NCBI GenBank assembly: GCA_028698185.1 | Contig: JAQVDW010000005.1 | Span: 69,441-101,440 of the forward strand | DNA from: Erysipelotrichaceae bacterium | GTDB taxonomy: Bacteria; Bacillota_I; Bacilli_A; Erysipelotrichales; Coprobacillaceae | Length of the DNA: 32,000 bases | Reading direction: 5' to 3' | Part shown: positions 841-21,691 of the stretch, piece by piece | Layout: every line of letters begins with the position of its first letter | Position numbering within the stretch: position 1 is the first letter of the stretch | The notes under the pieces: generated by a model | The model's input: only the letters and a program-made list of their open reading frames with translations | Database searches by the model: none | What the model was told of the DNA's origin: nothing | Position numbers and translations under genes: made by a program

Positions 841-869
841 CCCAAAATACATGAATTGAGGAAGAGAAA

Positions 870-2708: not shown

Positions 2709-2744
2709 CAATCAAATAACAAGGTGGATAACAACCCTTGAATC

Positions 2745-2777
2745 CAAAACCCTTGCATGCAAGGGTTTTGAATTTGT
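2745..2777 (+). terminator. hairpin terminator after the esterase gene
   Basis: Perfect 26-nt palindrome CAAAACCCTTGCATGCAAGGGTTTTG (2745-2770) followed by AATTTGT. Confidence 0.55.
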
Positions 2778-2835
2778 CTGGGCTGTAAATTATGGTATAA
2801 TGCGATTACAAGGCAGTTATGAAAGAGGTGGCAGC

Positions 2836-3807: not shown

Positions 3808-3905
3808 ATCGATATAACCTGATTGCAAATCAGGTTAATAAATAAGACAACCCACGACATTACAAAACGGGCTGTTTTTTTTTATACTTGTTTTGAGGTG
3901 AGAAT

Positions 3906-5282
3906 ATGAATTATTATCTGGCAATCGATATCGGCGCATCCAGCGGCCGGCATATCCTGTGCAGCCTGCAAGATGACAAACTGGTCCTGGAAGAAGTATA
4001 TCGGTTTTGCAACAATGTAGTTAAAAAAGAAGGTCATTATCATTGGGATATCGACAATCTCTTTGATCAGATCAAAACGGGTTTGAAGGAATGCAAGAAA
4101 GTGGGCAAGATCCCCAAGACAATGGCGATCGACACCTGGGCGGTTGATTATGCCCTGCTTGATAAAAGCGGCCAGGCTATCAACGGGGTTTACGCCTATC
4201 GGGATTCCCGCAACGATAAGGGGGTCAAATCAATCCAAAGCAAGATCGCTCCAGAAAAGCTTTACGGACTGACCGGACTCCAGTTCCAAAAGTTCAACAC
4301 CATCTATCAGCTTTCAAGCGAAGATGACAGGGCTAAAAAGGAAGCATGTGATTTCCTGATGGTTCCCGACTATCTCAACTATCTCCTTACCGGAGAAATG
4401 GCAAACGAGTACACCAACATGTCGACAACCCAGCTGCTCGACATCAAGACCAATAAGCTTGATGAAAGCCTGGTGGAACTGACGGGATTCAATCCGGACA
4501 TCTTCAAGAAGATGGTGATGCCTGGGACCAAGCTGGGCCACTTTGCTAAGGACATTGCCGGCGAAGTTGGTTTTGACTGCGAAGTTGTCGTTCCGGCAAC
4601 CCATGATACCGGCAGCGCCTATATGGCGGCTATCGAAGCCAACAGCATCATCCTTTCATCGGGAACCTGGTCGCTGCTGGGCATCGAGAGCTTGGAGCCG
4701 ATTGTCAATGAGGCGGCCCGGTTGGCCAACTTCACCAATGAGGGCGGCTACAATTACCGTTACCGGTTCTTGAAAAACATCATGGGGCTCTGGATCATCC
4801 AGGAAGTAGCCCGAGAGTACCATGGCGAATACGGTTTTGGCCAGCTGGTCGAAATGGCAAGAAAAGAGCCGTTTAAAGGGATCTTCGATGTCAATGCCGA
4901 CCGCTTCTTGAAGCCGGAAAACATGATTGAAGAAATCATTGCCTACTTCAAGGAACGCGACCAGGCCTGTCCCAAAACCGCAGGCGAAATCGCCTATTGT
5001 GTCTACAATTCCCTGGCGTACTGCTACAAAGAGGCCATCGAGGAATTGGAAGCAATCACCGGCAATGAGTATGGAACAATCAATATCATCGGCGGTGGAT
5101 GCCAGAATATCCTGCTCAATGAGATGATTGCGGCCACCTGCAATAAGAGGGTCGTGGCTGGTCCAATCGAGGCAACGGCATTGGGCAATATCCTTTCACA
5201 GCTAATCAGTGATGGTGTGGTCAACTCGCTTGAGCAAGGCCGTAAGCTGATCCGGGATTCATTTGAAATTAAAACATACTAG
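3906..5282 (+). CDS. rhaB: rhamnulokinase
   Basis: FGGY-kinase N-terminus AIDIGASSGRH. Blocks GIDTWAVDY, YRDSR, NEYTNMSTTQL, SSGTWSL, FLKNIMGLW and IGGGCQN align with E. coli RhaB as I recall it. GAGGTGAG RBS. Confidence 0.93.
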   Translation: MNYYLAIDIGASSGRHILCSLQDDKLVLEEVYRFCNNVVKKEGHYHWDIDNLFDQIKTGLKECKKVGKIPKTMAIDTWAVDYALLDKSGQAINGVYAYRDSRNDKGVKSIQSKIAPEKLYGLTGLQFQKFNTIYQLSSEDDRAKKEACDFLMVPDYLNYLLTGEMANEYTNMSTTQLLDIKTNKLDESLVELTGFNPDIFKKMVMPGTKLGHFAKDIAGEVGFDCEVVVPATHDTGSAYMAAIEANSIILSSGTWSLLGIESLEPIVNEAARLANFTNEGGYNYRYRFLKNIMGLWIIQEVAREYHGEYGFGQLVEMARKEPFKGIFDVNADRFLKPENMIEEIIAYFKERDQACPKTAGEIAYCVYNSLAYCYKEAIEELEAITGNEYGTINIIGGGCQNILLNEMIAATCNKRVVAGPIEATALGNILSQLISDGVVNSLEQGRKLIRDSFEIKTY

Positions 5283-5294
5283 AGGAGAATAGAG

Positions 5295-6554
5295 ATGGAT
5301 TTTGAAAAAAGATATCAAGAAGCAAAAGAAGTGTATGCGACTTTAGGCATCGATGTCGATGGAGCGTTGGAAAAATTGGATAATTTCCCGATTTCAATGC
5401 ACTGCTGGCAAGGTGATGACGTGGTCGGATTTGACGGGGCAGGTGCTCTTAGCGGTGGAATCCAGACAACTGGAAACTATCCCGGAAAAGCGACAACTCC
5501 CGAGCAACTGATGGGAGACATCGACAAGGTTTTTTCACTGACACCGGGAAAAAAACACCGGATCAACCTTCACGCCTGTTATGCGATTTTCCAGGAAGGT
5601 CAATGGGCTGACCGTGATCAACTTGAACCAAAACACTTCCAGGCTTGGGTTGACTATGCCAAACAAAGAGGGCTGGGACTGGATTTCAATCCGACTATCT
5701 TCTCCCATCCAAAAGCGACAGGGTTGACTCTGTCTTCACCGGATAAGGAAATCCGCGATTTCTGGATCAGACACAGCCAGGCCTGCATTAGAATCAGCGA
5801 ATATTTCGCAACTGAACTGGGCACACCTTGTCTGATGAATATCTGGATTCCCGATGGTTTGAAGGATATCCCCGGTGACCGGATGGCACCACGAAGAAGA
5901 TTCAAGGAATCGTTGGATGAGATCCTGTCAATCGATTATGACAAGGAAAAAGTTCTTGTATGTCTGGAATCGAAGGTGTTTGGAATCGGGATGGAATCAT
6001 ACACCGTCGGATCATCGGAGTTCACCTTGAACTATGCCAAGAGTGCGGGAATCACTCCATTGATGGACAACGGCCACTATCACCCGACCGAAGTCGTTTC
6101 CGACAAACTTTCGGCAATGCTGCTGTTCAATGACAAAGTGGCTCTTCACGTGACTCGTCCGGTACGTTGGGACAGTGACCACGTAGTCCTGTTCGATGAT
6201 GAAACAAAAGAAATCGCCAAGGAAATCGTCAGAAATGATGCCATGGAACGGGTTCTTGTCGGGCTTGACTTCTTCGATGCGAGCATCAACCGCATATCGG
6301 CTTGGACTGTTGGGATGCACAACATGCAAAAGGCGATGCTCAACGCCTTGTTGACACCACACGCGCAGCTGGCAAAACTGCAGGATGAAGGCAACTTCAC
6401 GAAAATCATGGCGATCCAGGAAGAGCTGAAGACTTATCCATTCGGTGATGTATGGAACTACTACATGGCCAAAAACAATCTGCCATCATATCTTGACTGG
6501 TTCAAAGAGATTGAACAATATGAAACAGATGTATTATCGAAAAGGGGACAATAG
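5295..6554 (+). CDS. rhaA: L-rhamnose isomerase
   Basis: [46 protein letters not shown] and [12 protein letters not shown] are near-identical to E. coli RhaA blocks. Confidence 0.95.
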
Positions 6555-6555
6555 A

Positions 6556-7383
6556 ATGAATATATTGGAATTGGAATTTATCAAAGGATTCATCCGGATG
6601 TGCGACGACGGGTTCAACCAGGGCTGGCATGAACGCAACGGCGGGAACCTGACTTACCGAATCAAGGCTGAAGAGATTGCAAAAACAGCAGGAATGCTTG
6701 ACGAATCCAAGGAATGGGTGGCCATCGGTACCGAAGTGCCTAGCCTGGCTGGGGAGTACTTCCTGGTTACCGGTTCGGGAAAATATTTCCGCAACGTGGC
6801 TCTTGCTCCTGAAACAAATATCGCGATCATCAAAATCGATGATACCGGAACAAAATACCAGCTGCAATGGGGTCTTGTCGATGGCGGGAAACCGACAAGC
6901 GAGCTGCCATCACATCTGATGAACCATGCGGTCAAAAAGGCGGCATCAAACGGTAAACATCGGGTTATCTACCATGCCCACACGACCAATGTGATCGCCC
7001 TGACTTTCGTATTGCCTTTGCGTGATGAAGTTTTCACTCGGGAACTTTGGGAAATGGCTACGGAATGTCCGGTTGTCTTCCCAGGGGGAATCGGAATGGT
7101 TCCTTGGATGGTGCCTGGAGGCAAAGCAATCGCTGTGGCAACCTCTAAACTGATGGAAAAATACGATGTGGCGATCTGGGCTCATCACGGGATGTTCTGC
7201 TCAGGTGAGGATTTCGATCTGACTTTTGGTCTGATGCATACGGTTGAAAAATCGGCGGAAATCCTGGTTAAAGTACTGTCAATCCAGCCAACCAAGCTCC
7301 AAACTATCCAGGCCGATGAGTTCCGCGAATTGGCTAATGATTTCAATGTCAATTTGCCTGAAGAATTTCTGTTTGAAAAATAG
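6556..7383 (+). CDS. rhaD: rhamnulose-1-phosphate aldolase
   Basis: Start ATG 6556, 1 nt after the rhaA stop, with an AAAGGGGA RBS. GWHERNGGNLTYR, VTGSGKYFRNV, TSELPSHL, TECPVVFPGGIGMVPWMVPG and TVEKSAEILVKV match E. coli RhaD. The ORF-track start at 6445 lies inside rhaA. Confidence 0.93.
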   Translation: MNILELEFIKGFIRMCDDGFNQGWHERNGGNLTYRIKAEEIAKTAGMLDESKEWVAIGTEVPSLAGEYFLVTGSGKYFRNVALAPETNIAIIKIDDTGTKYQLQWGLVDGGKPTSELPSHLMNHAVKKAASNGKHRVIYHAHTTNVIALTFVLPLRDEVFTRELWEMATECPVVFPGGIGMVPWMVPGGKAIAVATSKLMEKYDVAIWAHHGMFCSGEDFDLTFGLMHTVEKSAEILVKVLSIQPTKLQTIQADEFRELANDFNVNLPEEFLFEK

Positions 7384-7397
7384 GAGGGGGAACAAAG

Positions 7398-8555
7398 ATG
7401 TCAAAAAGATTTATATTAAACGAAACCAGCTACCATGGTAGCGGTGCAATCAAGGAAATTGTAAGCGAAGCAGTTTCCCGTCAATTCAAAAAAGCCCTTA
7501 TTGTCACTGACAAGGACCTGGTGAAATTCCAGGTGGTCAAAAAAGTCACTGACCTGTTGGACGAGGCGGGACTGGCATACGAGATTTTCGACGAAGTCAT
7601 GGCCAATCCGACCATCGAACTGGTTACCAATGGAGTCGCTGCCTTCAAAAAAAGCGGGGCCGACTACATGATCGCCATCGGGGGCGGGTCACCTCAGGAT
7701 GCGGCCAAGGCGATCGGAATCATCATCAACAATCCAGAATTCGCCGATGTGAGATCTTTGGAAGGAGTGGCGCCGACCAAAAACAAATGCGTTCCGATTA
7801 TTGCAGTGGCAACGACAGCTGGAACCGCAGCCGAAACGACAATCAACTACGTCATCACCGACGTCCAAAACAAGCGCAAGTTCGTCTGCGTCGATGTCCA
7901 TGACATCCCGGTTGTGGCGATCGTTGATCCGGACATGATGGCTTCGATGCCAAAAGGACTTACTGCGGCTACCGGCCTTGATGCCTTGACTCATGCGATT
8001 GAAGGGTATACGACTCTAGGAGCGTGGGAACTCGCTGATACTCTCAATCTTAAAGCGATCGGACTGATTGCAAGAAGCCTGGAAGCAGCCTGCCAGAACG
8101 ATCCCAAAGGTCGAGAAGACATGGCTTTGGGTCAATATATGACCGGAATGGCTTTCTCGAACGTGGGACTGGGTGTGGTCCATGGGATGGCTCATCCACT
8201 AAGCGCATTTTACGACACGCCTCATGGCATCGCCAATGCCGTGCTGCTTCCTTACGTGATGGAGTACAACAAGGACTTCACCGGTTCGAAATTCAGGGAA
8301 ATCGCCAGAGCGATGGGTGTGAGTGGTGTCGACGCCATGAGCGAAGCACAGTACAAGCAAGCAGCTATCGATGCTGTTGTCACATTGTCTAAAAACTGCT
8401 CAATTCCTCAGACCTTGAGGGAAATCGGTGTCAAGGAAGAAGACCTGGAAGCCTTGAGCGAAGCGGCTATGGCCGATGTGTGCACCGGGGGTAATCCGCG
8501 TCCTTGCCAAAAGAGCGAAATCCTGGATCTATATAAAAAAGCATATAACGGTTGA
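7398..8555 (+). CDS. fucO: lactaldehyde reductase (L-1,2-propanediol oxidoreductase), Fe-dependent ADH family
   Basis: ILNETSYHGSGA, GGGSPQDAAKAIGIIINNPEFADVRSLEG, TTAGTAAETTINYVITD, GLGVVHGMAHPL and DVCTGGNPR closely follow E. coli FucO. TAGGAGGGGG RBS. Confidence 0.9.
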   Translation: MSKRFILNETSYHGSGAIKEIVSEAVSRQFKKALIVTDKDLVKFQVVKKVTDLLDEAGLAYEIFDEVMANPTIELVTNGVAAFKKSGADYMIAIGGGSPQDAAKAIGIIINNPEFADVRSLEGVAPTKNKCVPIIAVATTAGTAAETTINYVITDVQNKRKFVCVDVHDIPVVAIVDPDMMASMPKGLTAATGLDALTHAIEGYTTLGAWELADTLNLKAIGLIARSLEAACQNDPKGREDMALGQYMTGMAFSNVGLGVVHGMAHPLSAFYDTPHGIANAVLLPYVMEYNKDFTGSKFREIARAMGVSGVDAMSEAQYKQAAIDAVVTLSKNCSIPQTLREIGVKEEDLEALSEAAMADVCTGGNPRPCQKSEILDLYKKAYNG

Positions 8556-8647
8556 TCGGCTGCCATGATTGACCTTATCCTCCAATAATATTGATCACCT
8601 GCGGCTATACCATTTTTGATTTTACAACACTACCACGAATATTATCC

Positions 8648-8672
8648 GACCGTGCCATAAGCACGGTCTTTT
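8648..8672 (+). terminator. rho-independent terminator of the rha operon
   Basis: GACCGTGC (8648-8655), loop CATAA, GCACGGTC (8661-8668), then TTTT. Confidence 0.75.
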
Positions 8673-9030
8673 CGCCAAATGTAAAATTGCAGTCAATGAC
8701 CTGAGTGGAAAAGGTAATTAGAAACGAAACAGAAGGAAAGATAAGATTTTTATGGAAAAATTTCAAGTTAGATTCAATTCCGTAGAGGGATTTGGAGCAG
8801 ATAATATCTGTTAAGCTAAGCACAAGGCACTCCGCTATCTAATCAATATCTGTATGCTAATATTCTAGGCTGAGAAGATAACCAATGTCAATTACGAATT
8901 CCATGCAAAAGAGCGAGCGGAAAAGGATTGTATTATTGGAAGTTATTTTTTCCATAGTAATGCAGTATCCAAGTATACACATAAATGTAGTAAAAACCTA
9001 TATCTTGCATGTAAACATCTCAAGACCTCA

Positions 9031-9049
9031 GTACAATGCAATTGTGCCT
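9031..9049 (-). repeat. copy of the AGGCACAA(W)T(W)TGTAAC motif, minus orientation with a 2-nt insertion
   Basis: The reverse complement reads AGGCACAATTGCATTGTAC. Its first 10 nt are identical to the copy at 9855-9864. Confidence 0.6.
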
Positions 9050-9086
9050 GGTTGATGACAGTCGTTAAATCGTAATTTCTCCTTAC

Positions 9087-9138
9087 AGAAAATAAAAGTA
9101 GGCACAAATTTGTAACTATCACTACAAACTTATGCCTA
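9087..9138 (-). terminator. terminator of the minus-strand gene 9162-9788; its stem is built from two motif copies
   Basis: TAGGCACAAATTTGTA (9099-9114) pairs with TACAAACTTATGCCTA (9123-9138), 14 of 16 positions, 8-nt loop. On the minus strand the hairpin is followed by CUUUUAUUUUCU. Confidence 0.6.
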
Positions 9139-9161
9139 TAACATTTGAAATATTCGGAATG

Positions 9162-9788
9162 CTATTTTTTTGTGATTTTCAGATCTTTGAAATATGCTTC
9201 GGTGCCGATTTCCGACCAAAGTCCGATTCCTCCGGTCGCATCGCTGCCATGGAACATGTCGTTGACAATCAGGGCCGGCTGGGATGCGTTGTTGACAAAA
9301 AGTAGGGCTTTTGAACCTTCGACTTCGATTTTCAAATCAATCCAGGCTTCAAATTCCATGTCCGCATAGGCTTCATATTTGCCCGCGGCAATCTCGCGCA
9401 ATCTGTCATATTTGTATTCCGGATATGAATAGTATTGGATTGAATGGTTGCGGCGCAGCTGGTCATCGCAGCGGGCGTTCAGTGGCCGGACGTAAATCGA
9501 TTCATAAGCGGTATTGGCAGAGTTGATGCGAAATGCCACTCCTAAAAAGCCACGGGCATGAGCGGGAGCGTCTTTCAACAGGCGGCTGAACACTTTGACT
9601 TCGATGATGCCATCATGGAAATCATCGCTACCATTGAATCGGGCGTAGGTCGGTTCATCGTCTTTGATGACTTCCGGGCTTTTCAATACTTTCAATACCG
9701 GGTCGCCATCGAGCGGTGTTTCTTCGACTGTGGAATTGACAGCGGTGAAATATTCAAGTGTCATTGGGATAAAATCAGTTTTGTTCAT
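9162..9788 (-). CDS. hypothetical cytoplasmic protein, possibly a concanavalin-A/LamG-like beta-sandwich (weak call)
   Basis: I prefer the second ATG (9788), which lies 6 nt after AGGAGA; the first ATG (9794) abuts the SD. No signal peptide. The pattern GFLGVAFRI...IYVRP...WIDLKIEVEGSKALLFVNN...GGIGLW suggests a jelly-roll fold. No recognisable catalytic motif. Confidence 0.6.
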   Translation of the reverse strand: MNKTDFIPMTLEYFTAVNSTVEETPLDGDPVLKVLKSPEVIKDDEPTYARFNGSDDFHDGIIEVKVFSRLLKDAPAHARGFLGVAFRINSANTAYESIYVRPLNARCDDQLRRNHSIQYYSYPEYKYDRLREIAAGKYEAYADMEFEAWIDLKIEVEGSKALLFVNNASQPALIVNDMFHGSDATGGIGLWSEIGTEAYFKDLKITKK

Positions 9789-9824
9789 TTGCATTCTCCT
9801 TTGTTTTTCATGATCACACTATAG

Positions 9825-9852
9825 ATTATAGCATCATAAAAAAGGATGTAAA
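9825..9852 (-). promoter_or_regulatory. candidate sigma-A promoter for the 9162-9788 gene
   Basis: On the minus strand: TTTACA (9852-9847), 16-nt spacer, TATAAT (9830-9825). One motif copy (9855-9871) lies directly upstream. Confidence 0.4.
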
Positions 9853-9854
9853 TA

Positions 9855-9944
9855 AGGCACAATTTTGTAACTGTGGAATTTTTTGAAATAAGTCGTTTCA
9901 AATCGAGATTCAAATTAAGTTCTCTTGGTTACATATTTGTGCCT
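9855..9944. repeat. inverted pair of the 17-nt motif in the divergent promoter region
   Basis: AGGCACAATTTTGTAAC (9855-9871) and GTTACATATTTGTGCCT (9928-9944; reverse complement AGGCACAAATATGTAAC) are identical at 15 of 17 positions with a 56-nt spacer. Confidence 0.8.
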
Positions 9945-9946
9945 AC

Positions 9947-9975
9947 TTAACATTGATAACTTCCCGGTGTATACT
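9947..9975 (+). promoter_or_regulatory. candidate sigma-A promoter of the precursor/rSAM operon
   Basis: TTAACA (9947-9952), 17-nt spacer ending in TG (extended -10), TATACT (9970-9975). It starts just 3' of the right motif arm. Confidence 0.5.
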
Positions 9976-10019: not shown

Positions 10020-10238
10020 ATGACAACATTCCAAAAAAAATTAAGTGCCCAAGCTTTCTTTAGAGCGGCGGCAACTGAGGCTTCATCATCTTGTGGCAGC
10101 GCCTGTGGTGCTGGCGATAAGGAAGTCAAAGAAGAAACTCCAAGTGCTTGTGGCAGTGCCTGTGGTGCTGGCGACAAGGAAGTCAAAGAAGAAACTCCAA
10201 GCGCTTGTGGCAGCGCTTGTGGTGCCGGGGACAAATAA
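10020..10238 (+). CDS. candidate RiPP precursor: 24-aa leader plus three tandem Cys-rich units (CGSACGAGDK) with EVKEETPSA linkers
   Basis: AAGGAG at 10007-10012 lies 7 nt before the ATG. 72 aa: MTTFQKKLSAQAFFRAAATEASSS-[CGSACGAGDK-EVKEETPSA]x2-CGSACGAGDK-stop. Same strand as the radical SAM/SPASM gene and 107 nt upstream of it. Confidence 0.75.
   Translation: MTTFQKKLSAQAFFRAAATEASSSCGSACGAGDKEVKEETPSACGSACGAGDKEVKEETPSACGSACGAGDK
10092..10235 (+). repeat. in-frame 57-bp tandem repeat, 2.5 copies
   Basis: Units start at 10092, 10149 and 10206. Units 1 and 2 differ at 3 of 57 nt. All 7 variable sites across the three units are third codon positions. Confidence 0.95.
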
Positions 10239-10263
10239 TTCTTAGAGTTTTTTCATCCGTTCT

Positions 10264-10290
10264 AGCTGACAGTCTTGTCAGCTTCTTTTA
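10264..10290 (+). terminator. intra-operon hairpin (leaky terminator/attenuator) between precursor and maturase genes
   Basis: AGCTGACA (10264-10271), loop GTCT, TGTCAGCT (10276-10283), then TCTTTTA. Confidence 0.55.
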
Positions 10291-10345
10291 GAAATCACGC
10301 AAGAGCGTTGAGATAGATCATCAATAACGAAAGAGGATAATAATC

Positions 10346-11371
10346 ATGGAATATTTCGCATTTCAATTTCATATAACCGACCAGTGTGACCAGCGGTGCG
10401 AGCACTGCTACATCTTTGCCGAGGACAACAACATCTGCTTGAAAGAGATGGAATTGGAGGATGTTGAAAAAGTCATCACCAATTGTGTCGACATGTGTAC
10501 GAGAATGGAACGACTGCCTTATTTTTACATTACCGGAGGCGATCCGATCCTCCATCAGAATTTCTGGGATATCGCAAAACTGCTCAAAGAGCGCAACATC
10601 CCTTTTGGCATCCTGGGCAATCCGTTCCATCTCAACGATGAAACATGTGCCCGGTTGGCCCAACATGGCTGCAAGAAATACCAGCTTTCGATCGATGGGA
10701 TGGAAAAAACCCATGACTTCATCCGCAAGCCTGGTTCGTTTGCGACCACCCTTGCCAAGATTCCGGTTCTCAAAAAAGCCGGTATCGATGTGGCCATCAT
10801 GACGACAGTTTCTGGAACAAATATAGATGAGATGGAAGACATTGTCGACCTGGTTGTCGAACACGAAGCGGACATTTTCGCTTTTGCCCGCTACTGCCCG
10901 ACCAGCTTTGAAAAGGAAACCCACATTGAACCATTGGAATATCGGAATTTGCTTGACCGGTTGTGGCAAAAGTTCGAAACGTACCAGGATGGGCCCACTA
11001 CCTTCAACCTCAAGGACCATCTATGGAATCTCTACCTTTATGAAAAGGGCCTGTATCAGATTCACGAAGGATTGGAACAAGACAAAATCCATGACGGATG
11101 CAACTGCGCCAACTGTCATATGACGATTTTGCCTGACGGTGCTGTCTATGCCTGCCGCCGGATGGAAAGCAATATCGGCAATGTATTGAGCCAGAGCATC
11201 TATGATCTTTATCATGGCAAGGAAATGGAAGCATACCGCCAATATGACAAGTTTGAAAAATGCGCCAAATGCGAGCTGCTCAACTTCTGCCGCGGGTGTC
11301 CGGCGGTGGCCTATGGCTATACCCACGACATGTACGCGCCCGACCCGCAGTGCTGGAAAGAAATCGATTAG
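10346..11371 (+). CDS. radical SAM/SPASM-domain enzyme (putative peptide maturase)
   Basis: CDQRCEHC gives CX3CX2C at residues 14-21. The C-terminus has CNCANCHMTILPDGAVYAC ... CAKCELLNFCRGC ... DPQCW, a SPASM-type auxiliary-cluster Cys pattern. AAGAGGA RBS. There is no N-terminal extension that could hold an RRE. Confidence 0.9.
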   Translation: MEYFAFQFHITDQCDQRCEHCYIFAEDNNICLKEMELEDVEKVITNCVDMCTRMERLPYFYITGGDPILHQNFWDIAKLLKERNIPFGILGNPFHLNDETCARLAQHGCKKYQLSIDGMEKTHDFIRKPGSFATTLAKIPVLKKAGIDVAIMTTVSGTNIDEMEDIVDLVVEHEADIFAFARYCPTSFEKETHIEPLEYRNLLDRLWQKFETYQDGPTTFNLKDHLWNLYLYEKGLYQIHEGLEQDKIHDGCNCANCHMTILPDGAVYACRRMESNIGNVLSQSIYDLYHGKEMEAYRQYDKFEKCAKCELLNFCRGCPAVAYGYTHDMYAPDPQCWKEID

Positions 11372-11384
11372 TGAGGAGGATATC

Positions 11385-11978
11385 ATGGAACAAACCAATG
11401 AAGTAATTGAATGTTTGCAAAAGCGCCGGACCTACCGCCAGTTCCAGGACCGGTCAATTGAAAGGGAGAAACTCGACCTGATTGTCAATGCCGGTCTGGT
11501 CGCCCCCAATGCCGGAGGCCGCCAGGGCCCGGTATTCATCGTTTGCCAGGATAAGACAGTCAATACATTGTTGGGAGAAGCCAGACGGCAGGCCAGTTCC
11601 ATTCCAACCGGACGTCACGTTTCTAAGGAACAGCCCAGTGTGATCGACAATCCAAACATCAAAAACAGTTTCTATGGGGCTCCGGTGGTTGTCACCATCG
11701 CCGCACCGAAAAATTTCATTTTCAGTCAAAGTGATGCGGCTATGGCAGCCCAAAATATGATTATCGCGGCCACCTCCCTGGAAATTGCATCTTGTTTTAT
11801 CGGTAGGGCGGAAACGACTTTCAATACCGGAATCGGCGTAGTTATCTGGAATGATTGGAATATCGCAGAAAATCTCAAACCGTTCTGTCATATCCTGCTT
11901 GGCTACCCGGCGGGAATTCCGCCCAAACCTAAACAAATCAAGGAAAACCGGGTTTTCTTCGTCAACCAGGACCAATAA
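11385..11978 (+). CDS. nitroreductase-family flavoprotein
   Basis: Start ATG 11385 after GAGGAGGA, 13 nt after the rSAM stop. The N-terminus RRTYRQFQDRSIEREKLDLIVNAGLVAPNAGGRQ is the typical nitroreductase signature. The ORF-track start at 11202 lies inside the rSAM gene. Confidence 0.85.
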   Translation: MEQTNEVIECLQKRRTYRQFQDRSIEREKLDLIVNAGLVAPNAGGRQGPVFIVCQDKTVNTLLGEARRQASSIPTGRHVSKEQPSVIDNPNIKNSFYGAPVVVTIAAPKNFIFSQSDAAMAAQNMIIAATSLEIASCFIGRAETTFNTGIGVVIWNDWNIAENLKPFCHILLGYPAGIPPKPKQIKENRVFFVNQDQ

Positions 11979-12927
11979 TGCATGATATCTGGAATCCCTG
12001 GCATGGCTGTGTGAAAATCAGCGAAGGCTGTGCCAACTGCTACATGTATTTTCTCGACAAGAAAAACGGAAAAGATGGGGCAGTGATCTATCGTTCCAAA
12101 AACAACTTTGATTACCCTTTGAAAAGGACCGCCAGGGCGAATACAAAATCAAAAGTGGCGAAATAATCCGGGTCGCGATGACTTCGGACTTCTTCCTCGA
12201 ACAAGCCGACCAGTGGCGTGATGAGGCCTGGAAAATCATGGAAGCCCGTAGCGATGTCATCTTTTTCCTGTTGACCAAACGGGCCCAACGGATCAATGAG
12301 TGCCTGCCCGAAAGTTTCCAAAACGGCCGATGGGATATGGCGAATATCTTCATCAATGTCTCGTGCGAGAATCAGCGCCTGGCCGATTTGCGGATCCCCT
12401 ATCTTTTGAAAGTCCCGATAAAGCACAAGGGGATCATGGCGGCGCCTTTTATCGGGCCAATCAACATCGAAAAGTATCTGGCAACCGGAATGATTGAACA
12501 GGTGATTTGCGGTGGGGAGAATTATGGCGGGGCGAGGATGTGCGACTTTGACTGGGTCAGGGATCTGGGGGGCCAATGCCGGGACCATCAAGTCAAGTTC
12601 GCTTTCATCGAAACCGGGTCTATTTTTTGCAAGGATGGCCAGCGTTACAAGATTGCCCCAAAAGCCATGCAAAGCCGTCTGGCCTACAAATCGAAAGCCA
12701 GTCTTGAAGGCAAGAAGATAACTTTCGATCTGCATGATGTCAATAAAAATCCGATTCCCAAAGACAAGTTGCATGTGCCCCATTACCGGGAAACTTGCCG
12801 CTATTGTGGCAGCAGATCCATCTGCAATGGTTGCAGTGACTGTGGCCGATGTAATGGCGAAATAATCACTCAGGAACAAATGAAAATCCATGACCAGGAA
12901 TATTTCAAAAAAGGAGCTAAAAAATGA
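11978..12927 (+). pseudogene. DUF5131 (phage Gp37/Gp68 family) three-Cys protein with a Cys-rich C-terminal tail; reading frame broken by a -1 shift
   Basis: WNPWHGCVKISEGCANCY (C-x6-C-x2-C) is in frame 2 (11978-12166). The family continuation ...GEYKIKSGEIIRVAMTSDFF...LLTKR...GGENYGGARM...FAFIETG is in frame 1, open from 12112. One extra A in the A4 run 12122-12125 would fuse the frames as DYPLKKDRQGEY. The start overlaps the nitroreductase stop (TAATG) and the stop overlaps the next ATG (ATGA). Confidence 0.7.
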
Positions 12928-13895
12928 AAGCAGTATTGTTGGAGAAACCGATCAAAGCCAATGAAATGAAAATTGTCGAAGTGCCAAAGCTTAAAATCAG
13001 ACCAGGATGGGTTTTGATCAAAGTCAAAGGTTTCGGGTTGAACCGGGCCGAATTGATTTTGCGCAATCATGAAATCGCAGCGGATTACATCCAGAAGCCG
13101 GTTGTTCCGGGTATCGAGTGTGTCGGGGAAATTCATGATGGAGGCGACAGCCGTTTCAACAAGGGCGATAAAGTAGTCGCCTTGATGGGCGGAATGGGCC
13201 GGAGTTTTAACGGCAGCTACAGTGAGTATGCCTTGTTGCCGGCCCACCATGTGTTCAAGGTGGAAACCGCAATGGATTGGGTCGAATTGGCTGCGATTCC
13301 CGAAACGTTTTACACGGCCTACGGTTCGCTGTTCGAATCGCTCCAGCTCAAAGGAGATGATATCCTGCTTGTCCATGGGGCGACCTCGGCGCTTGGTTTG
13401 GCAGCCATCCAGCTGGCCAAAACAGTGGGAGCTACGGTTATTGGCACCTCACGCAAGGAAGAACGCCTGGACTTGTTGCGGGAGGTTGGTTGTGACCATG
13501 CCCTTGTGGATGATGAAAACCTGGTTGCCAAGATCAAGGATATATATTCAAAGGGCATCACGAAAATTTTGGAATTGGTCGGAGCCCATACGATCGCCAA
13601 AACAGCCCAACTGCTTAGAATTGGGGGAATTGTCTGTGTCACTGGCAAACTGGGCGGGGGCCAGACTAACGGCTTGGATCTGATCCGCCTGCTGCCAAAT
13701 GGCACCTATCTTTGTGGTTTCTACAGCAATTATCCGACCCAGGCGGTGATTGATGATATCTTCAGGATCATCGAACAACACAACATCAAGCCGGTAATTG
13801 GCCGGGTCTTCGACTTTGAGCAGATCGGTGAAGCCCATGAGGTGATGGAAAACAACCAGGCCCAAGGGAAAATTGTCATCAGAATGAGTGAGTGA
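12924..13895 (+). CDS. MDR-superfamily zinc-type alcohol dehydrogenase / NADPH:quinone oxidoreductase-like protein
   Basis: The N-terminal GroES-like part (VKGFGLNRAELILR, PGIECVGEI) and the Rossmann GxxxxxG region (VHGATSALGLAAIQLAK), ending in NQAQGKIVI, are typical of the QOR/zeta-crystallin subgroup. AAGGAG RBS. Confidence 0.85.
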   Translation: MKAVLLEKPIKANEMKIVEVPKLKIRPGWVLIKVKGFGLNRAELILRNHEIAADYIQKPVVPGIECVGEIHDGGDSRFNKGDKVVALMGGMGRSFNGSYSEYALLPAHHVFKVETAMDWVELAAIPETFYTAYGSLFESLQLKGDDILLVHGATSALGLAAIQLAKTVGATVIGTSRKEERLDLLREVGCDHALVDDENLVAKIKDIYSKGITKILELVGAHTIAKTAQLLRIGGIVCVTGKLGGGQTNGLDLIRLLPNGTYLCGFYSNYPTQAVIDDIFRIIEQHNIKPVIGRVFDFEQIGEAHEVMENNQAQGKIVIRMSE

Positions 13896-14006: not shown

Positions 14007-14333
14007 CTATCCGACGAAGTCCTTGTACTGGTTGCCCCATTCTTCCATCGATTTGAACAAGGGTCTAAGACTGTTGCCCATGTCGGTGAGCGAATACTCC
14101 ACTTTCGGGGGCACGACCGGGTAGGCCTTGCGGTCGACAATGCCATCGGCTTCCAATTGGCGCAGGTTGTCGGTGAGCACCTTCTGGGAAATTCCTGGCA
14201 GGCTGTTTTTCAGCTCGCCAAAACGGCAGGTCGAAACCAGAAGATTCCGGATGATCAATAATTTCCATTTGTTGCCGATGATCTCAACCATGGTGGCCAC
14301 CGGGCAAGCAGGCAGTTCGTCTTTGGTAAGCAT
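14007..14333 (-). CDS. HxlR/YodB-type (DUF24) winged-helix transcriptional regulator
   Basis: CPVATMVEIIGNKWKLLIIRNL, FGELK, GISQKVLTDNLRQLEADGIV and PPKVEYSLTDMG form the classical HxlR signature, including the conserved N-terminal Cys (C10). AAGGAG RBS. Confidence 0.9.
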   Translation of the reverse strand: MLTKDELPACPVATMVEIIGNKWKLLIIRNLLVSTCRFGELKNSLPGISQKVLTDNLRQLEADGIVDRKAYPVVPPKVEYSLTDMGNSLRPLFKSMEEWGNQYKDFVG

Positions 14334-14583
14334 AATTTTCTCCTTAGTATCTGATATGGTGTAAGTATAAAATATAATGTATGGATTGTCAATATGGTCC
14401 CGCTGATTAACCTATCTCGTTGGCCATAGTCACTTTCAGGTAACTAGATAATAAAAAAGTGCGTACTTTTGCGAATGAATTATTTTTGGTAAGATGAATT
14501 TGGCTCAAGGAGGGCCGATGAAAATCTAATATTATAATCAGATTCAAGATGGGGATCAATCGGTTATGGAAGGAGTTGTAATC

Positions 14584-15504
14584 ATGGAATTTTACAGCAA
14601 TTATTGTCAGAAAAAAAATAAAAGTCAAAATTATCCGAGTTTGGAACAGAGAGTCAAAACTGTTCGGGAATTGCTTGAAGAGGCCGAGTATGTTGTCATC
14701 GGGGCCGGTTCGGGTTTGTCGTCGGCGGCCGGTCTTGACTTTGGCGGCGAGCGGTTTGAAAAATATATGGGCGAATTCGGATCAAGGTATGGCTATCATG
14801 ACATGTATAGCGGTGATTTTTACAACTACCAGACGCGTGAGGAATTCTGGGCGTTCGAGGCCAAGACAATCCTGGTTAACCGCTATGAGGTGCCCGGTTT
14901 GAAACTGTATCACAAGTTGTTTGACTTGATCAAGGATAAAAACCATTTCGTGATCACAACCAATGTCGAAAGCCAGTTTGCCAAATCGGGATTCGATTCC
15001 AATCGCATCTTCGCGACCCAGGGTGATTACAGCAAGCTTCAATGTGGTGGCGCCTGCCACGACACCCTGTATGACAATGAAAAGTTGGTCAAAGAAATGG
15101 TTGCCAAGACAAGAGACTGTGCCATCCCGACTGAACTGATTCCCAAATGTCCGATATGCCATAGGGAAATGAAGGTCAACTTGCGCAGCGATGGCTACTT
15201 TGTCGAAGACAAATCATGGCATGAGGCCTGCAGCCGCTATGAATCATTCATCAGCTCCATCAATAAGGCACCGGTGGTTTATCTGGAATTCGGGGTCGGC
15301 TACAATACGCCGGGCATCATCCGCTATCCCTTCGAACGCTTCACATACGCCAACCCCAACGCCCATCTAATCCGCTTCAACCGGGACTATCCCGAAGGAA
15401 TCACTGAAAACAAAGACAAGACGATCGGTTTCACCGAGGATATGAATATGGTCCTCGCCATGTTATTCGAACCGACAAAAGGAGAACAGGAAAATGAGCT
15501 TTAA
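14584..15504 (+). CDS. SIR2-family protein, class M-like sirtuin (SirTM-type, putative protein ADP-ribosyltransferase)
   Basis: I prefer ATG 14584, 8 nt after GGAAGGAG. GAGSGLSSAAGLDF NAD-binding loop. TTNVESQF replaces QNID. ATQGDYSKLQCGGAC has Gln where canonical sirtuins have the catalytic His (HG). Zn-ribbon Cys pairs CGGAC and CPIC. GVGYNTP replaces GTS. Confidence 0.75.
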   Translation: MEFYSNYCQKKNKSQNYPSLEQRVKTVRELLEEAEYVVIGAGSGLSSAAGLDFGGERFEKYMGEFGSRYGYHDMYSGDFYNYQTREEFWAFEAKTILVNRYEVPGLKLYHKLFDLIKDKNHFVITTNVESQFAKSGFDSNRIFATQGDYSKLQCGGACHDTLYDNEKLVKEMVAKTRDCAIPTELIPKCPICHREMKVNLRSDGYFVEDKSWHEACSRYESFISSINKAPVVYLEFGVGYNTPGIIRYPFERFTYANPNAHLIRFNRDYPEGITENKDKTIGFTEDMNMVLAMLFEPTKGEQENEL

Positions 15505-16033
15505 AGAAATAGGAATTGAAGAATTGGAAATAAACCCGATGACAATGATCGGAGGCGACTGGTGGTTGATCAGTGCTGGTAATGAACAAAATGGTTACAA
15601 TGCGATGACGGCCTCATGGGGGCATCTAGGCGCAATCTGGGAAAGACCTGAAGGCAAAGCCCACATGGGATTGCCGACTGCCTGTGTCTATTTGCGCCCG
15701 CAACGCTATACCAAGGAATATCTTGAGCGCGAGGACATTTTCACACTGAGTGTGTTCGAAAGCAATCACAAAAGGGCCCTAGGCTACCTTGGCAGCCACA
15801 GCGGCCGCAATGAAGATAAAATCGCCAATGCCAACCTGACACCAGTATTCGATCAGGGCACAATCTACTATGAACAGGCTAAAATGGTCTTTGTCTGCAA
15901 GAAGATCTACAATGCCCCATTGCAAGAAAGCGGCTTTGTCGATACCAGCCTGGTTGAAAACAACTACCCGAAAAAAGATTTCCACGAAATGTATATCGGA
16001 GAAATTGTCAAAGTCCTGGTCAAGAATGACTGA
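15494..16033 (+). CDS. flavin reductase-like (FMN-binding split-barrel) protein
   Basis: AAGGAG RBS, 11-nt overlap with the sirtuin gene. NAMTASWGHLG is the characteristic N.MT.SW motif of the flavin-reductase-domain family. Confidence 0.75.
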   Translation: MSFKEIGIEELEINPMTMIGGDWWLISAGNEQNGYNAMTASWGHLGAIWERPEGKAHMGLPTACVYLRPQRYTKEYLEREDIFTLSVFESNHKRALGYLGSHSGRNEDKIANANLTPVFDQGTIYYEQAKMVFVCKKIYNAPLQESGFVDTSLVENNYPKKDFHEMYIGEIVKVLVKND

Positions 16034-16763
16034 TGATTTGGATAACTTGACTCAAGAGCTCAACGATTTCGTCCAGGAAAAAGGGATCGATATTTTCGGG
16101 ATCGGGGATGTCGACTATCTCAACCAGATGGCCCGACCCGGCCGCCGGCTAGAAGATCTGTTTCCCGGTGGCCAGGCGGTGTTGATCTTTGGCTGTGGCA
16201 TAGACCATTCCCTGGCGCGGGCTTGGGTCAAATCCGGAAGAGGAAAATATCTGACTCTGACGATGACTGCCTTGGAAAACCGTAAGTGGCTGATCAAGGA
16301 TTTTCTTGCTAGAAAAGGCTACCGCACATTCGGGGGTGAATTTCACGGCGGAGGAATTTGGGAAACCGGAATCCGTCTGGGAGAAGCCGGAGCCAGTGCC
16401 GGTCTGGGCTACATTGGCAAAAACAATATGCTTATCACTCCCAAATACGGACCCCGGGTCAACCTGGCGTACCTGGTCACCGATGCCCCGCTGCAAACGA
16501 CAGTGGTCACTCCCAAAAATGAATGTGGCACCTGTGCGATCTGCGAAAAATATTGCACCAGCAAGGCGATTTTAGGTGATGGTTATTTCCATGGCCGGGC
16601 CTGCGAGAGTGTCATCAACTGCATGGCAAACAAGATCCACCTGACCAGTCAGGTCACGATGGATTGCGATATGTGTCAAAGGATGTGTCCCCAAGGGGAA
16701 ATCAAATATTCAAAAATAGAACGTCAGGGTACCTGGTGGGACAAATTGGAGCAATATCAATGA
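16026..16763 (+). CDS. QueG/reductive-dehalogenase-like 4Fe-4S protein (short form)
   Basis: GLGYIGKNNMLITPKYGPRVNLAYLVTDAPL resembles the epoxyqueuosine reductase core. CGTCAICEKYC and CDMCQRMCP are ferredoxin-type Cys motifs. Start ATG 16026 overlaps the upstream stop by 8 nt. The SD is weak. Confidence 0.7.
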   Translation: MTDDLDNLTQELNDFVQEKGIDIFGIGDVDYLNQMARPGRRLEDLFPGGQAVLIFGCGIDHSLARAWVKSGRGKYLTLTMTALENRKWLIKDFLARKGYRTFGGEFHGGGIWETGIRLGEAGASAGLGYIGKNNMLITPKYGPRVNLAYLVTDAPLQTTVVTPKNECGTCAICEKYCTSKAILGDGYFHGRACESVINCMANKIHLTSQVTMDCDMCQRMCPQGEIKYSKIERQGTWWDKLEQYQ

Positions 16764-17508: not shown

Positions 17509-18351
17509 ATGGAAAACCTGACCCAAAACCAACGACTGGATTGTCTGATTGACTGGCTCAAAGGGGAGTCTTATCATTACCGCAATTTGAAAGTCGATGG
17601 CGATCATGAAAAAAAGAAAGCAACCCTCAGGGCGTTGATGAATATCCGGATGCCCCGGAATGTCCCGATGTCAATCATGACCATCCAGGATGAATATTTG
17701 CAACAAGAACGCCAAGCCACAGGTGTCGTCGGCCCTGATGCCATTCCTTCAATCGAAGAAACATTAGGATCTGAATTGCCGTTTGGTTCCAAACTGGCCT
17801 TATGGCAGGGGGACATCACCACCCTGGAAGTCGATGCGATCGTCAATGCCGCAAACAACCAGCTGCTGGGCTGTTTCATTCCCAATCATCACTGCATCGA
17901 CAACGCGATCCATTCCGGTGCGGGAATGGCCTTGCGGCTGGAGTGCGCCAATTACATGAACAGCAGGCAAAAAATCCACGGCGACCAATATCTGGAGCCA
18001 ACCGGTCAGGCAATGATCACCAATGGCTACAATCTCGCAGCTTCGTATGTGATTCATACAGTCGGCCCGATTGTCACCGGAAAGCTCGAAAATAGCCACC
18101 GCATCGCATTGAAAAGCTGTTATCACAACGTGCTGGAACGGGCCCGGGAAAATGGGCTACGGACCTTGGCGTTGTGTTGCATCTCGACCGGGGAATACCA
18201 TTTCCCCAATCTCGAAGCAGCCCATATCGCTGTGGCAACTGTCCGCGATTACCTGGAAAATCACGGTGACTGTTTCGATTTGATCATCTTCAACGTGTTC
18301 AAGGACCAGGATTATGAATGTTACAAGAATGTACTGTCGTCAATGAAATAG
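17509..18351 (+). CDS. macrodomain protein-ADP-ribose hydrolase (SirTM-partner type)
   Basis: GAAGGAG RBS. The ~95-aa helical N-terminal extension, then LWQGDITTLEVDAIVNAANNQLLGC, HSGAGMALR, YVIHTVGP and CCISTGEYHFP, is the architecture I recall for the Staphylococcus/Streptococcus operon macrodomain. Confidence 0.85.
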   Translation: MENLTQNQRLDCLIDWLKGESYHYRNLKVDGDHEKKKATLRALMNIRMPRNVPMSIMTIQDEYLQQERQATGVVGPDAIPSIEETLGSELPFGSKLALWQGDITTLEVDAIVNAANNQLLGCFIPNHHCIDNAIHSGAGMALRLECANYMNSRQKIHGDQYLEPTGQAMITNGYNLAASYVIHTVGPIVTGKLENSHRIALKSCYHNVLERARENGLRTLALCCISTGEYHFPNLEAAHIAVATVRDYLENHGDCFDLIIFNVFKDQDYECYKNVLSSMK

Positions 18352-18363: not shown

Positions 18364-18972
18364 ATGGATTTCATCGATATTTCCAAAAAGCGCCAGACCG
18401 TGCGCAAGTTTTCCAATGAACCGGTCGAACCAGAAAAACTGGAAAAAATATTGGAGGCGGGAAGGTGGGCACCTACGGCTGTCAATGGCCAACCCCAGCG
18501 GATTCTTGTCCTGGACAATCCCGAGAACCTCATGAAGGTGAAGCAGTTCTGCAGTTTTGGCTATGACCAGAAGTATGTCGATCTGGCCCATGAGTGCGAC
18601 GATTCGAAAAACGGGAAAATCAACTTGTACTATGGAGCCCCGCTGGTTCTGTTTGTCTGCTATGACCAGGATGCCTGCTGGAGACATCCCCAGACCGGAG
18701 AGAGTTCCGGAGCGACCGATGCGACAATCGTCGCCACCCATCTGATGCTTGAGGCGGCCAGTTTGAATCTTGGCAGCGTGTGGATCAGCTATTTTGATGA
18801 AACCAAAGCCCGGGAATTGTTGAACATTCCCAAGCAGTGGCAACCCGTATGCATGCTGTATATCGGCTATCCGGCCGCGGATTTTGTGCCCAACACCCAT
18901 CTAGGAGGCAAACGCCTGCCAATCGGGAAAACCTGTTTTTACAACGGGGTTCCCGGGCAACACAATTCGTGA
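18364..18972 (+). CDS. nitroreductase-family flavoprotein
   Basis: AGGAGG RBS, 12 nt after the macro gene. KRQTVRKFSNEPVEPEKLEKILEAGRWAPTAVNGQPQR is the typical nitroreductase N-terminus. Confidence 0.85.
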   Translation: MDFIDISKKRQTVRKFSNEPVEPEKLEKILEAGRWAPTAVNGQPQRILVLDNPENLMKVKQFCSFGYDQKYVDLAHECDDSKNGKINLYYGAPLVLFVCYDQDACWRHPQTGESSGATDATIVATHLMLEAASLNLGSVWISYFDETKARELLNIPKQWQPVCMLYIGYPAADFVPNTHLGGKRLPIGKTCFYNGVPGQHNS

Positions 18973-20319: not shown

Positions 20320-20384
20320 AGTAAAATATGCTTGACTGGAGTTGACTTCAATGCCGTATGATTGAATGTAGGAGGAATATTAAG

Positions 20385-21503: not shown

Positions 21504-21530
21504 GAGTTGGAATCCCAACTCTTTTTTTTT
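21503..21530 (+). terminator. rho-independent terminator
   Basis: AGAGTTGG (21503-21510), loop AATC, CCAACTCT (21515-21522), running into T9. Confidence 0.85.
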
Positions 21531-21665: not shown

Positions 21666-21691
21666 AAATGGAACCTTTAGTTGAATCACAT

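Follow-up and report, generated by a model that had tools for sequence, protein, structure and literature searches.

An ACGX-system peptide and radical SAM/SPASM enzyme in an Erysipelotrichaceae contig, with a conserved neighbourhood of HxlR, reductase and SirTM/Zn-Macro genes

What is made from a short peptide of repeated cysteine motifs that is encoded beside a radical S-adenosylmethionine (SAM) enzyme, and what might its use be? The question is raised by a locus in contig JAQVDW010000005.1 of an Erysipelotrichaceae bacterium, of which a stretch of 32,000 nucleotides, here called the window, was analysed. An open reading frame (ORF) for a 72-residue peptide lies on the + strand at 10020-10238, with AGGAG 8 nt before its ATG. 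The peptide starts with MTTFQKKLSAQAFFRAAATEASSS, followed by three identical CGSACGAGDK units joined by EVKEETPSA linkers; the leader comprises 24 residues and has an LSAQAFF motif. After a gap of 107 nt, a radical SAM/SPASM maturase of 341 residues is encoded on the same strand (10346-11371). An earlier note, made from the sequence of this DNA, had described the peptide ORF with its units, linkers and Shine-Dalgarno sequence, and the downstream enzyme; all were found where it had placed them. It had also proposed an undescribed combination of genes, and this did not survive the family searches. The TIGR04340 model matched the enzyme at 575.8 bits (cutoff 400; E = 3e-173; residues 2-340 of 341 aligned), the ACGX-repeat peptide model TIGR04341 matched the peptide at 49.7 bits (cutoff 28; E = 4.4e-13), and the identical enzyme is named by the NCBI annotation pipeline PGAP as 'MAG: radical SAM/SPASM domain protein, ACGX system [Erysipelotrichaceae bacterium]'. 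Since both models scored above their cutoffs and the identical enzyme already carries this name, the pair is catalogued. The flanking window proteins carry only generic names in NCBI. The window shares every defining feature of the ACGX system (TIGR04340 rSAM_ACGX, TIGR04341 target_ACGX, PF27855), and the locus is, as judged from its sequence, a genuine member of it. The conserved neighbourhood of the ACGX genes, consisting of HxlR, reductase, SirTM and Zn-Macro genes, appears to be unreported so far. ACGX is a large named family, and this context turns an 'unknown RiPP' (ribosomally synthesized and post-translationally modified peptide) into concrete hypotheses. The product is fairly probably a peptide that stays inside the cell, is regulated by stress, and has its ACG cysteines rewritten oxidatively by the radical SAM enzyme.

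The three repeat units differ by 2, 5, and 5 nucleotide changes, and the two linkers by 1. Since all of these changes are synonymous, the small ORF is judged to be under protein-level selection, well beyond chance. The ACGX peptide was found upstream of the radical SAM gene, and on the same strand, in 76 of the 76 related loci having upstream sequence; four of the 80 genome loci compared were omitted, as their contigs end within about 200 nt of the enzyme start. In precomputed, independent gene calls, PF27855 (Target_ACGX) was also assigned to the gene upstream of the radical SAM gene in related loci. At the level of gene content, these occurrences show an obligate pairing of peptide and enzyme across several bacterial phyla and in one contig of a Methanosarcina metagenome-assembled genome (MAG). 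Between the two genes of the window, a hairpin with an 8-bp stem is followed by TCTTTT (10264-10290, + strand). It is a possible attenuator or partial terminator that could set the ratio of precursor to enzyme, and its statistical support is modest (z = -2.07).

The family peptides have a common leader motif, x(S/T)AQx(Y/F), which reads RSAQSYLCA or HTAQAYLCA in the Bacteroidales versions. The cores consist of 2-5 units of [S/A]ACG[S/T]ACGAG[D/E]K, or of shorter units with one Cys such as SACGAGDD, and are joined by linkers of the KPEPKP type. The context of the core Cys is [A/S]-C-G-[S/A]-[G/A]: the -1 position is A in 71% and S in 14%, and the +1 position is G in 88%; the remaining +1 residues are mostly A (10%), which are read as belonging to the leader Cys of the ...YLCA motif. 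The two Cys inside a unit are spaced by four residues (C-x3-C). At the +4 position after Cys, D (33%) and E (21%) are frequent, so the acidic residue is common but not universal, and family members without it end in ...ACGSACGAK, ...CGASN, or ...CGAGGN. No in-frame UGA or internal stop was found in the window peptide ORF, which encodes Cys only and no selenocysteine.

Pfam analysis of the enzyme identified Radical_SAM (PF04055) and SPASM (PF13186) domains, and the sequence has a C14-x3-C18-x2-C21 motif, the CX3CX2C of the earlier note. Among 12 diverse rSAM_ACGX members, 134 positions are invariant, and these include C14, C18, C21, C252, C254, C270, C306, C309, C315, C318, and C336; the identity across phyla is about 63-78%. 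The ACGX enzyme has no N-terminal RiPP recognition element (RRE), because the CX3CX2C motif starts at residue 14. We infer that the leader is recognised by the enzyme through its conserved motif. The best-scoring characterised family after TIGR04340 was SbtM (TIGR04082), with 183.6 bits over query residues 3-336. SbtM strips four hydrogens from Cys or Sec and yields a thiooxazole (Lewis et al. 2021, as summarised in PMC11002830). The SbtM/SbtA pair is like ACGX in that a radical SAM/SPASM enzyme acts, or in ACGX would act, on Cys of a small peptide under anaerobic conditions; it differs by its selenocysteine precursor, which is absent in ACGX, whereas the repeat architecture and the HxlR/reductase context are found in ACGX only. 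By analogy, the likeliest chemistry would be an SbtM-like conversion of Cys to 5-thiooxazole.

The other families scored lower, including AhbD (123 bits), NirJ-type enzymes (about 100), MftC (TIGR03962, 77.4 bits with a cutoff of 265), anSME (TIGR03942, 69.7 with 349.45), PapB (NF047865, 69.5 with 340), and the sactipeptide maturases (65 with 625). A PDB sequence search with the enzyme gave SkfB as the top match (E = 1.5e-11). An AlphaFold2 model had a confident core and a weak SPASM half (mean predicted local distance difference test score of 63.5), and its nearest structures by Foldseek were SkfB, SuiB, anSME, TigE, and PqqE. The solved-structure matches are generic SPASM/twitch peptide maturases at no more than 21% identity; they are consistent with a peptide maturase and would fit several reaction chemistries alike.

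These matches bear on a different kind of product, a secreted thioether-crosslinked RiPP with antimicrobial or signalling function, which would be either a sactipeptide or a ranthipeptide with PapB-like links from Cys to Asp/Glu in C-G-A-G-D. SkfB, SuiB and anSME are among the nearest folds, D or E stands four residues past the second Cys in most units, and PapB gives a weak match. The earlier note had likewise compared the units with the CX3D motif that PapB crosslinks in freyrasin and with the anSME motif. PapB and anSME do resemble the ACGX enzyme as radical SAM/SPASM enzymes that act on Cys, as is predicted for ACGX, and anSME likewise has no RRE. However, both analogies are weak, at about 70 bits against cutoffs of 340-349, and SbtM is closer. 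The PapB analogy was rejected on its score and on the acidic residue, which is not universal in the family even though most units read C-x3-D/E; the anSME analogy was rejected on its score and on the absence of its substrate motif, C-x-[PA]-x-R, from the window peptide. The sactipeptide maturase score is farther still below its cutoff. No exporter, leader peptidase or other protease, immunity gene, or RRE protein is conserved in the 83 related loci, so that ACGX differs from the ranthipeptides also by its lack of export machinery. The core is near-invariant from Bacteroidota to Firmicutes to Spirochaetes, unlike that of bacteriocins, and the regulator is of the stress-type HxlR family. A secreted thioether peptide is therefore considered highly improbable.

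Which genes, then, belong to the system? The earlier note had drawn its bounds at 10020-13895 and proposed a five-gene unit. In the window, the enzyme gene is followed after 13 nt by a nitroreductase-fold flavin mononucleotide (FMN) reductase (11385-11978, + strand; PF00881, E = 1.5e-20), then with a TAATG overlap by a DUF5131 gene (11978-12927, +), and with an ATGA overlap by a quinone-oxidoreductase-like NAD(P)H reductase (QOR) of the medium-chain dehydrogenase/reductase family (12924-13895, +; ADH_N and ADH_zinc_N domains), whose PIG3-like score of 200.6 bits is under the cutoff of 296.8. The short spacings and overlaps given in the earlier note were confirmed, but DUF5131 is not one intact ORF. 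It is broken by a 1-nt deletion near 12121-12127 into pieces of 62 residues (11978-12166) and 249 residues (12178-12927). At this site the window reads TTG-AAAAGGACC; the intact allele has TTGAAAAAGAACC, and intact homologs run through as ...DYPLHKNRKGQYKIKSGE.... The identical deletion allele was found in a second assembly (comparison locus L164), whereas a third assembly (L165) has an intact gene of 316 residues; the deletion is thus a real polymorphism, and DUF5131 is dispensable here. In the related contig L167, DUF5131 and QOR are each broken at other positions. DUF5131 is a subgroup of the radical SAM superfamily in SFLD and RadicalSAM.org (PMC9477430); searches gave no solved structure and no functional literature for DUF5131 or DUF1848.

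The window proteins were compared with six-frame ORFs of the 80 genome loci. The gene directly 3' of the radical SAM gene is a QOR in 50 and a nitroreductase in 25 of the 80, and the QOR homologs in this position match the window QOR at E = 1e-100 to 1e-126. In three of the five loci with neither, SirTM occupies the slot; their QOR lies farther downstream, except in L003, which has it about 4 kb upstream. The contig of L002 stops after SirTM, and that of L042 at the radical SAM gene. DUF5131 is found within 3 kb of the enzyme in only five of the 80 loci. The two reductases are thus alternatives, and the five-gene unit did not hold. In 64 of the 80 loci, a regulator of the HxlR family is present within 3 kb, mostly upstream and divergent. 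The same order emerged from independent gene calls for Desulfotomaculum, Caldicellulosiruptoraceae, and Clostridium akagii, with HxlR on the - strand followed by Target_ACGX, rSAM-SPASM, and ADH_zinc. Unbiased clustering of ORFs within 4 kb on each side recovered only the families named here for these loci together with shadow ORFs; no transporter, protease, or RRE/PqqD protein was found in this range in the 80 loci. The earlier note's picture of a radical SAM/SPASM peptide-maturase system without RRE, PqqD-like ORF, protease, or exporter therefore holds both in the window and in the 83 related loci. These counts define the conserved unit as an HxlR regulator, the peptide, the radical SAM enzyme, and one NAD(P)H reductase; SirTM, Macro, DUF1848, and DUF5131 are, by their occurrence among the loci, optional additions.

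The window is atypical, since nitroreductase, frameshifted DUF5131, and QOR are all present, and its HxlR gene is downstream and convergent (14007-14333, - strand; PF01638, E = 2.3e-34). The leader subtype of the peptide correlates with the reductase across loci L001-L080: HTAQ leaders occur with QOR rather than nitroreductase in 23 loci to 4, and RSAQ..LCA leaders occur with nitroreductase rather than QOR in 12 to 1. The correlation indicates two cassette sub-lineages with occasional swaps, and would not amount to proof of an interaction between peptide and reductase.

The redox enzymes also bear on the possibility of a peptide-derived cofactor or low-molecular-weight thiol in the style of mycofactocin or PQQ. 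Housekeeping peptidases would excise the repeats, and the QOR or nitroreductase would tailor the product or act as its cognate redox enzyme. The extreme conservation of the core across phyla is unusual in antibiotics, several identical cores are present in one precursor, the accessory enzymes are redox enzymes, and the system occurs mainly in anaerobes; glutathione production is not known from the anaerobe lineages that carry ACGX. However, no conserved peptidase was found in the cassette or its surroundings, and mycofactocin and PQQ require an RRE protein and a protease, which in mycofactocin are MftB and MftE, and neither is present here. The MftC model scored 77 bits, far below its cutoff of 265. 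The units vary in length and number and have one or two Cys, which argues against a single defined small molecule. An excised cofactor is accordingly regarded as improbable.

The regulator provides a further indication of function. The HxlR/DUF24 regulons YodB-azoR1/yodC, HypR-hypO, and QorR-qor2 are thiol-sensing, and their regulators have a conserved N-terminal sensor Cys; YodB, HypR, and QorR control nitroreductases and quinone reductases. As in ACGX, a Cys-bearing regulator adjoins a nitroreductase or quinone oxidoreductase gene in these regulons, but they have no peptide-radical SAM pair. A Cys in a CPV motif, about 10 residues before GNKW, was found in 44 of the 44 regulators that matched the search pattern, and we take this to be the sensor-Cys position of YodB, HypR, and QorR. 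The window HxlR protein is RrpB-like at 125 bits, below the cutoff. It is a candidate redox or electrophile sensor of the regulon.

Analysis of the upstream regions identified a promoter box as the possible target of this regulator. The 10-mer GTGCCTACTT occurs on the + strand, about 35-90 nt before the peptide ORF, in L002, L003, L015, L030, L040, and L041, and falls inside a conserved block of about 45 nt. The loci with the exact 10-mer before the peptide belong to Neobacillus, Vallitaleaceae, Clostridiaceae, Sporomusa, Treponema, and a Bacillota MAG. The window carries four copies of the GTTAC-N6-GTGCCTACTT type. The first is an exact short-form box, GTTACATATTTGTGCCTACTT (9928-9948, + strand), a candidate HxlR operator situated 72 nt 5' of the peptide ATG and directly next to the -35 hexamer of a putative promoter for the peptide operon (TTAACA-17-TATACT, 9947-9975, +; 10 of 12 consensus matches). 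The second is a short-form box with 2 mismatches (9851-9871, - strand), which abuts the -35 hexamer of a promoter-like site (TTTACA-16-TATAAT, 9852 to 9825, -) of a divergent gene, here called up210. The third is an exact short-form GTTAC-N6-GTGCCTACTT box (9096-9116, - strand) in the ORF-poor stretch 8556-9161. The fourth is a long-form box, GTAACTAGATAATAAAAAAGTGCGTACTT (14440-14468, + strand), which lies between the HxlR and SirTM genes, 98 nt before the SirTM ATG, and agrees with the cross-phylum consensus of alignment A2. The positions of the boxes suggest that they might be the HxlR operator. In L030 (Sporomusa silvacetica), a promoter/operator block of about 90 nt is present twice, beside the HxlR start (8150-8225) and before the peptide (9337-9420), and the two copies are separated by about 1.1 kb of uncharacterised sequence. 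Another candidate operator, GCACAG-N8-CTGTGC, upstream of the radical SAM gene in 27-36 loci, was rejected: it lies inside the peptide gene and encodes the leader AQAYLCA, and the single 1-mismatch copy in the window is at background frequency.

The up210 gene (9162-9794, - strand) encodes a conserved protein of 210 residues and is divergent from the peptide operon. No Pfam or NCBIfam match was found for it, apart from a weak 3keto-disac_hyd match (E = 0.017). Homologs are present near ACGX or SirTM genes in L011, L031, L049, and L126, and up210 is probably co-regulated with the peptide operon. The stretch 8556-9161, 600 nt between convergent genes, gave no convincing ORF, no Rfam family, and no blastx or blastn similarity to the comparison loci; it may hold a small gene or RNA that has escaped annotation, or may represent a regulon member in decay.

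The regulator and the predicted chemistry together bear on a third possibility, a metal-binding peptide that would be the anaerobic, cytoplasmic counterpart of bufferins and methanobactin. Its Cys pairs would be converted to thiooxazole-type ligands that chelate Cu(I) or another thiophilic metal. Among characterised enzymes SbtM comes nearest, and Cys-derived 5-thiooxazoles are the metal ligands of bufferins and related copper-binding RiPPs, which are made by multinuclear non-haem iron-dependent oxidative (MNIO) enzymes. Each unit has C-x3-C spacing and each peptide 2-5 units, and the C-G-S context presumably resembles the modified Cys motif of methanobactin precursors. The MNIO peptides are also Cys-rich and ribosomal, their Cys become heterocyclic sulfur ligands, and they serve protective or housekeeping rather than antibiotic roles. 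However, they are made by an O2-dependent non-haem iron enzyme (DUF692) with a partner protein, and these genes have no sequence relation to those of ACGX. The precursors of bufferins and methanobactins are exported, whereas the ACGX peptide has no signal peptide. Neither a CsoR, CopY, ArsR, or MerR type of regulator nor a metal transporter or chaperone gene is conserved among the 83 loci; the regulator that is conserved is a thiol sensor of the HxlR type, and a chelator would have no need of the conserved NAD(P)H reductase partner. A metal chelator is consequently thought unlikely.

Does the system end at the QOR gene, as the earlier note had it? It extends farther: the HxlR gene, the promoter boxes, and a SirTM/Zn-Macro pair all went unreported there. 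The protein at 14566-15504 (+ strand) has no Pfam match, but it matches the structure of the Streptococcus pyogenes class-M sirtuin (SirTM; PDB 5A3A) with E = 3.6e-54 over residues 29-276, and is a predicted protein ADP-ribosyltransferase. The hallmark of class-M sirtuins is a Gln that replaces the catalytic His, together with a partner Arg (PMC4518038). The QGD of the window protein aligns to the QGE of SpySirTM, and Q152, G153, and R207 are invariant in 12 homologs. A flavin-reductase-like protein of the same operon follows (15494-16033, +; PF01613, E = 4.8e-09), and its homolog stands beside Macro in L003. The next gene encodes a 4Fe-4S protein, QueG-like or reductive-dehalogenase-like but below the family cutoffs, with an uncertain start codon (16029-16763, +). 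The predicted Zn-Macro protein-ADP-ribose hydrolase (17509-18351, +) scored 293.4 bits with NF003163 (cutoff 272) and matched the structures 8RSI (E = 3.6e-62) and 5KIV (E = 1.2e-47). It lies about 2 kb 3' of SirTM in one + strand gene run, and the two genes are directly adjacent in most related loci. A second nitroreductase, NTR2 (18364-18972, +; PF00881, E = 4.7e-34), has close homologs in the ACGX loci L003 (6e-110) and L014 (4e-76).

SirTM homologs are present in 14 of the 83 ACGX loci, and Zn-Macro homologs in 13. The SirTM-bearing loci span four phyla and comprise 9 of the 13 non-Bacteroidota loci and 5 from Bacteroidota. The two genes are mostly in one tight operon with the ACGX enzyme; the window is atypical in this respect also, as they form a separate operon preceded by its own box. 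The gene order varies (intergenic distances in brackets): hxlr< pep rsam>(4)SirTM>(2)Macro>(-4)qor> in Treponema, rsam(4)qor(30)Macro(-4)SirTM(-43)DUF5131 in Marinilabiliales, rsam(28)SirTM(50)qor(13)Macro in Mobilitalea, and rsam, qor, SirTM, DUF1848, Macro in Sporomusa, a Bacillota MAG, and Desulfotomaculum. The slot beside SirTM is occupied by DUF1848 in L030, L041, L081, L083, L084, and L136, and by DUF5131 in L003, L011, and L013, which suggests that the two might have analogous accessory roles. A reverse test was made with 80 metagenomic SirTM loci. Of these, 29 extended for 3 kb or more in each direction, and among the 29 Macro was adjacent in 27 cases, HxlR in 21 cases, and the ACGX radical SAM gene in 6; no other non-regulatory family exceeded the last. 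No other dominant gene family was found in the HxlR-Macro/SirTM slot in the 80 loci, and the ACGX enzyme was the commonest genuine partner there. These counts indicate that HxlR, Macro, and SirTM form a widespread module, of which ACGX is the commonest identifiable add-on. The ACGX cassette and the SirTM module are each also found without the other nearby.

The GcvH-L protein of Staphylococcus and Streptococcus, in its lipoylated form, receives ADP-ribose on Asp27 from SirTM, and Zn-Macro reverses this; the linked oxidoreductases are an old yellow enzyme (OYE) and a luciferase-like monooxygenase (LLM), and the lipoyl dithiol is protected in oxidative stress (PMC4518038, PMC11490716, PMC12440151). 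According to PMC11490716, no SirTM target besides GcvH-L is known, and what the remaining SirTM/Zn-Macro systems act on has stayed elusive. Lone SirTM/Macro pairs are known from Clostridiaceae, Lachnospiraceae, Spirochaetaceae, and Veillonellaceae (PMC4518038). The window resembles the GcvH-L/LplA2/SirTM/Zn-Macro/OYE/LLM operon in its SirTM with Gln for the catalytic His, its Zn-Macro, and its presumed link to oxidative stress. For the other parts the ACGX operon has formal counterparts: a small acidic peptide with sulfur as the candidate carrier, an enzyme dedicated to its predicted modification, and two flavin/NAD(P)H oxidoreductases. They differ in that the GcvH-L operon has a lipoylated protein with OYE and LLM, whereas the window set has a Cys-repeat peptide predicted to be modified by a radical SAM enzyme, with QOR and nitroreductase. 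No GcvH or lipoate-ligase domain was found in the window ORFs scanned.

As a tentative hypothesis drawn from gene linkage, the modified ACGX peptide might serve the 'lone' SirTM/Zn-Macro pairs of Clostridia, Negativicutes, Spirochaetes, and some Bacteroidota as their physiological substrate or carrier, gated by reversible ADP-ribosylation and controlled with all its partners by one HxlR sensor. The peptide would be a ribosomal analogue of lipoyl-GcvH-L. ADP-ribose attached to each unit, at its conserved Asp/Glu or at Cys, would gate or shield the sulfur chemistry, and the QOR or nitroreductase would take the part played by OYE and LLM in Staphylococcus. If this is true, ACGX would be a candidate SirTM target outside the GcvH-L operons, encoded in the same operon.

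How well does a stress-regulated, oxidatively rewritten cytoplasmic peptide account for the whole? The radical SAM enzyme would take an H atom at the Cys of each [A/S]-C-G motif and rewrite those Cys oxidatively. The modified peptide would remain in the cytoplasm of the mostly anaerobic hosts, where it might counter redox or electrophile stress by acting as a buffer or carrier based on sulfur. Modification of the HxlR sensor Cys would induce the operon, and the QOR or nitroreductase might complete the modification or recycle the product. Many lineages may have added a SirTM/Zn-Macro ADP-ribosylation switch, comparable to that of lipoyl-GcvH-L. The preference of the earlier note for an intracellular redox, thiol, or cofactor-like role over a bacteriocin fits the evidence better.

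Several points weigh against the proposed peptide, however. Literature searches on the ACGX system, its accessions and motif, and HxlR together with radical SAM and SPASM gave no experimental paper on any member, and its chemistry and physiological role are therefore inferred. The SbtM match falls short of the family cutoff of 350 and is confined to model positions 198-515 of 516, and the ACGX enzyme does not have the N-terminal region of about 195 residues of SbtM. The 80 genome loci are heavily skewed to Bacteroidales MAGs, and the promoter box was seen in non-Bacteroidota loci only. The conserved regulator and reductase could mean co-regulation only, with no direct action on the peptide. 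HxlR-type sensors mostly answer to oxidants or electrophiles, and radical SAM enzymes are oxygen-labile. A role in oxidative stress is awkward for this reason, whereas a role in electrophile stress under anoxia is not.

Relatives of the enzyme were found in at least 577 GTDB species genomes. The top matches are mostly from Bacteroidales, and also from Clostridia, Neobacillus, Sporomusa, Treponema, and one Methanosarcina MAG. ACGX is plentiful in gut and rumen Bacteroidales, Clostridia, Negativicutes, and Spirochaetes, which are mainly anaerobes. The Methanosarcina sp. MAG contig (L053, 4.7 kb) has a complete set of peptide, radical SAM gene, and QOR, and its enzyme has 65% identity to the bacterial enzymes; this cassette in an archaeal bin is due either to horizontal transfer or to a binning error. 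Two paralogous ACGX radical SAM genes (P0030 and P0040; 72% and 69% identity to the query) apparently belong to one Vallitaleaceae genome (OY762509.1, L003), which implies more than one ACGX cassette per organism.

Two further gene sets flank the region in the window. At 73-8555 there is a rhamnose utilisation cluster with a rhamnosidase fragment, an esterase, an AraC regulator, an FGGY kinase, a RhaA isomerase, a class II aldolase, and an iron-dependent alcohol dehydrogenase, which appears to be unrelated to the ACGX locus. Nitroreductases, FMN reductases, and aldo/keto reductases abound in the wider neighbourhood. Eight aldo/keto-reductase genes lie at 20358-30090, one of them fused to a 4Fe-4S domain, and among them are a LysR regulator, a ferredoxin-like gene, an FMN reductase, and a SnoaL-like protein. 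A major facilitator superfamily transporter is encoded directly upstream of this set and a flavodoxin directly downstream. All these genes make up a carbonyl or electrophile detoxification island beside the ACGX/SirTM region.

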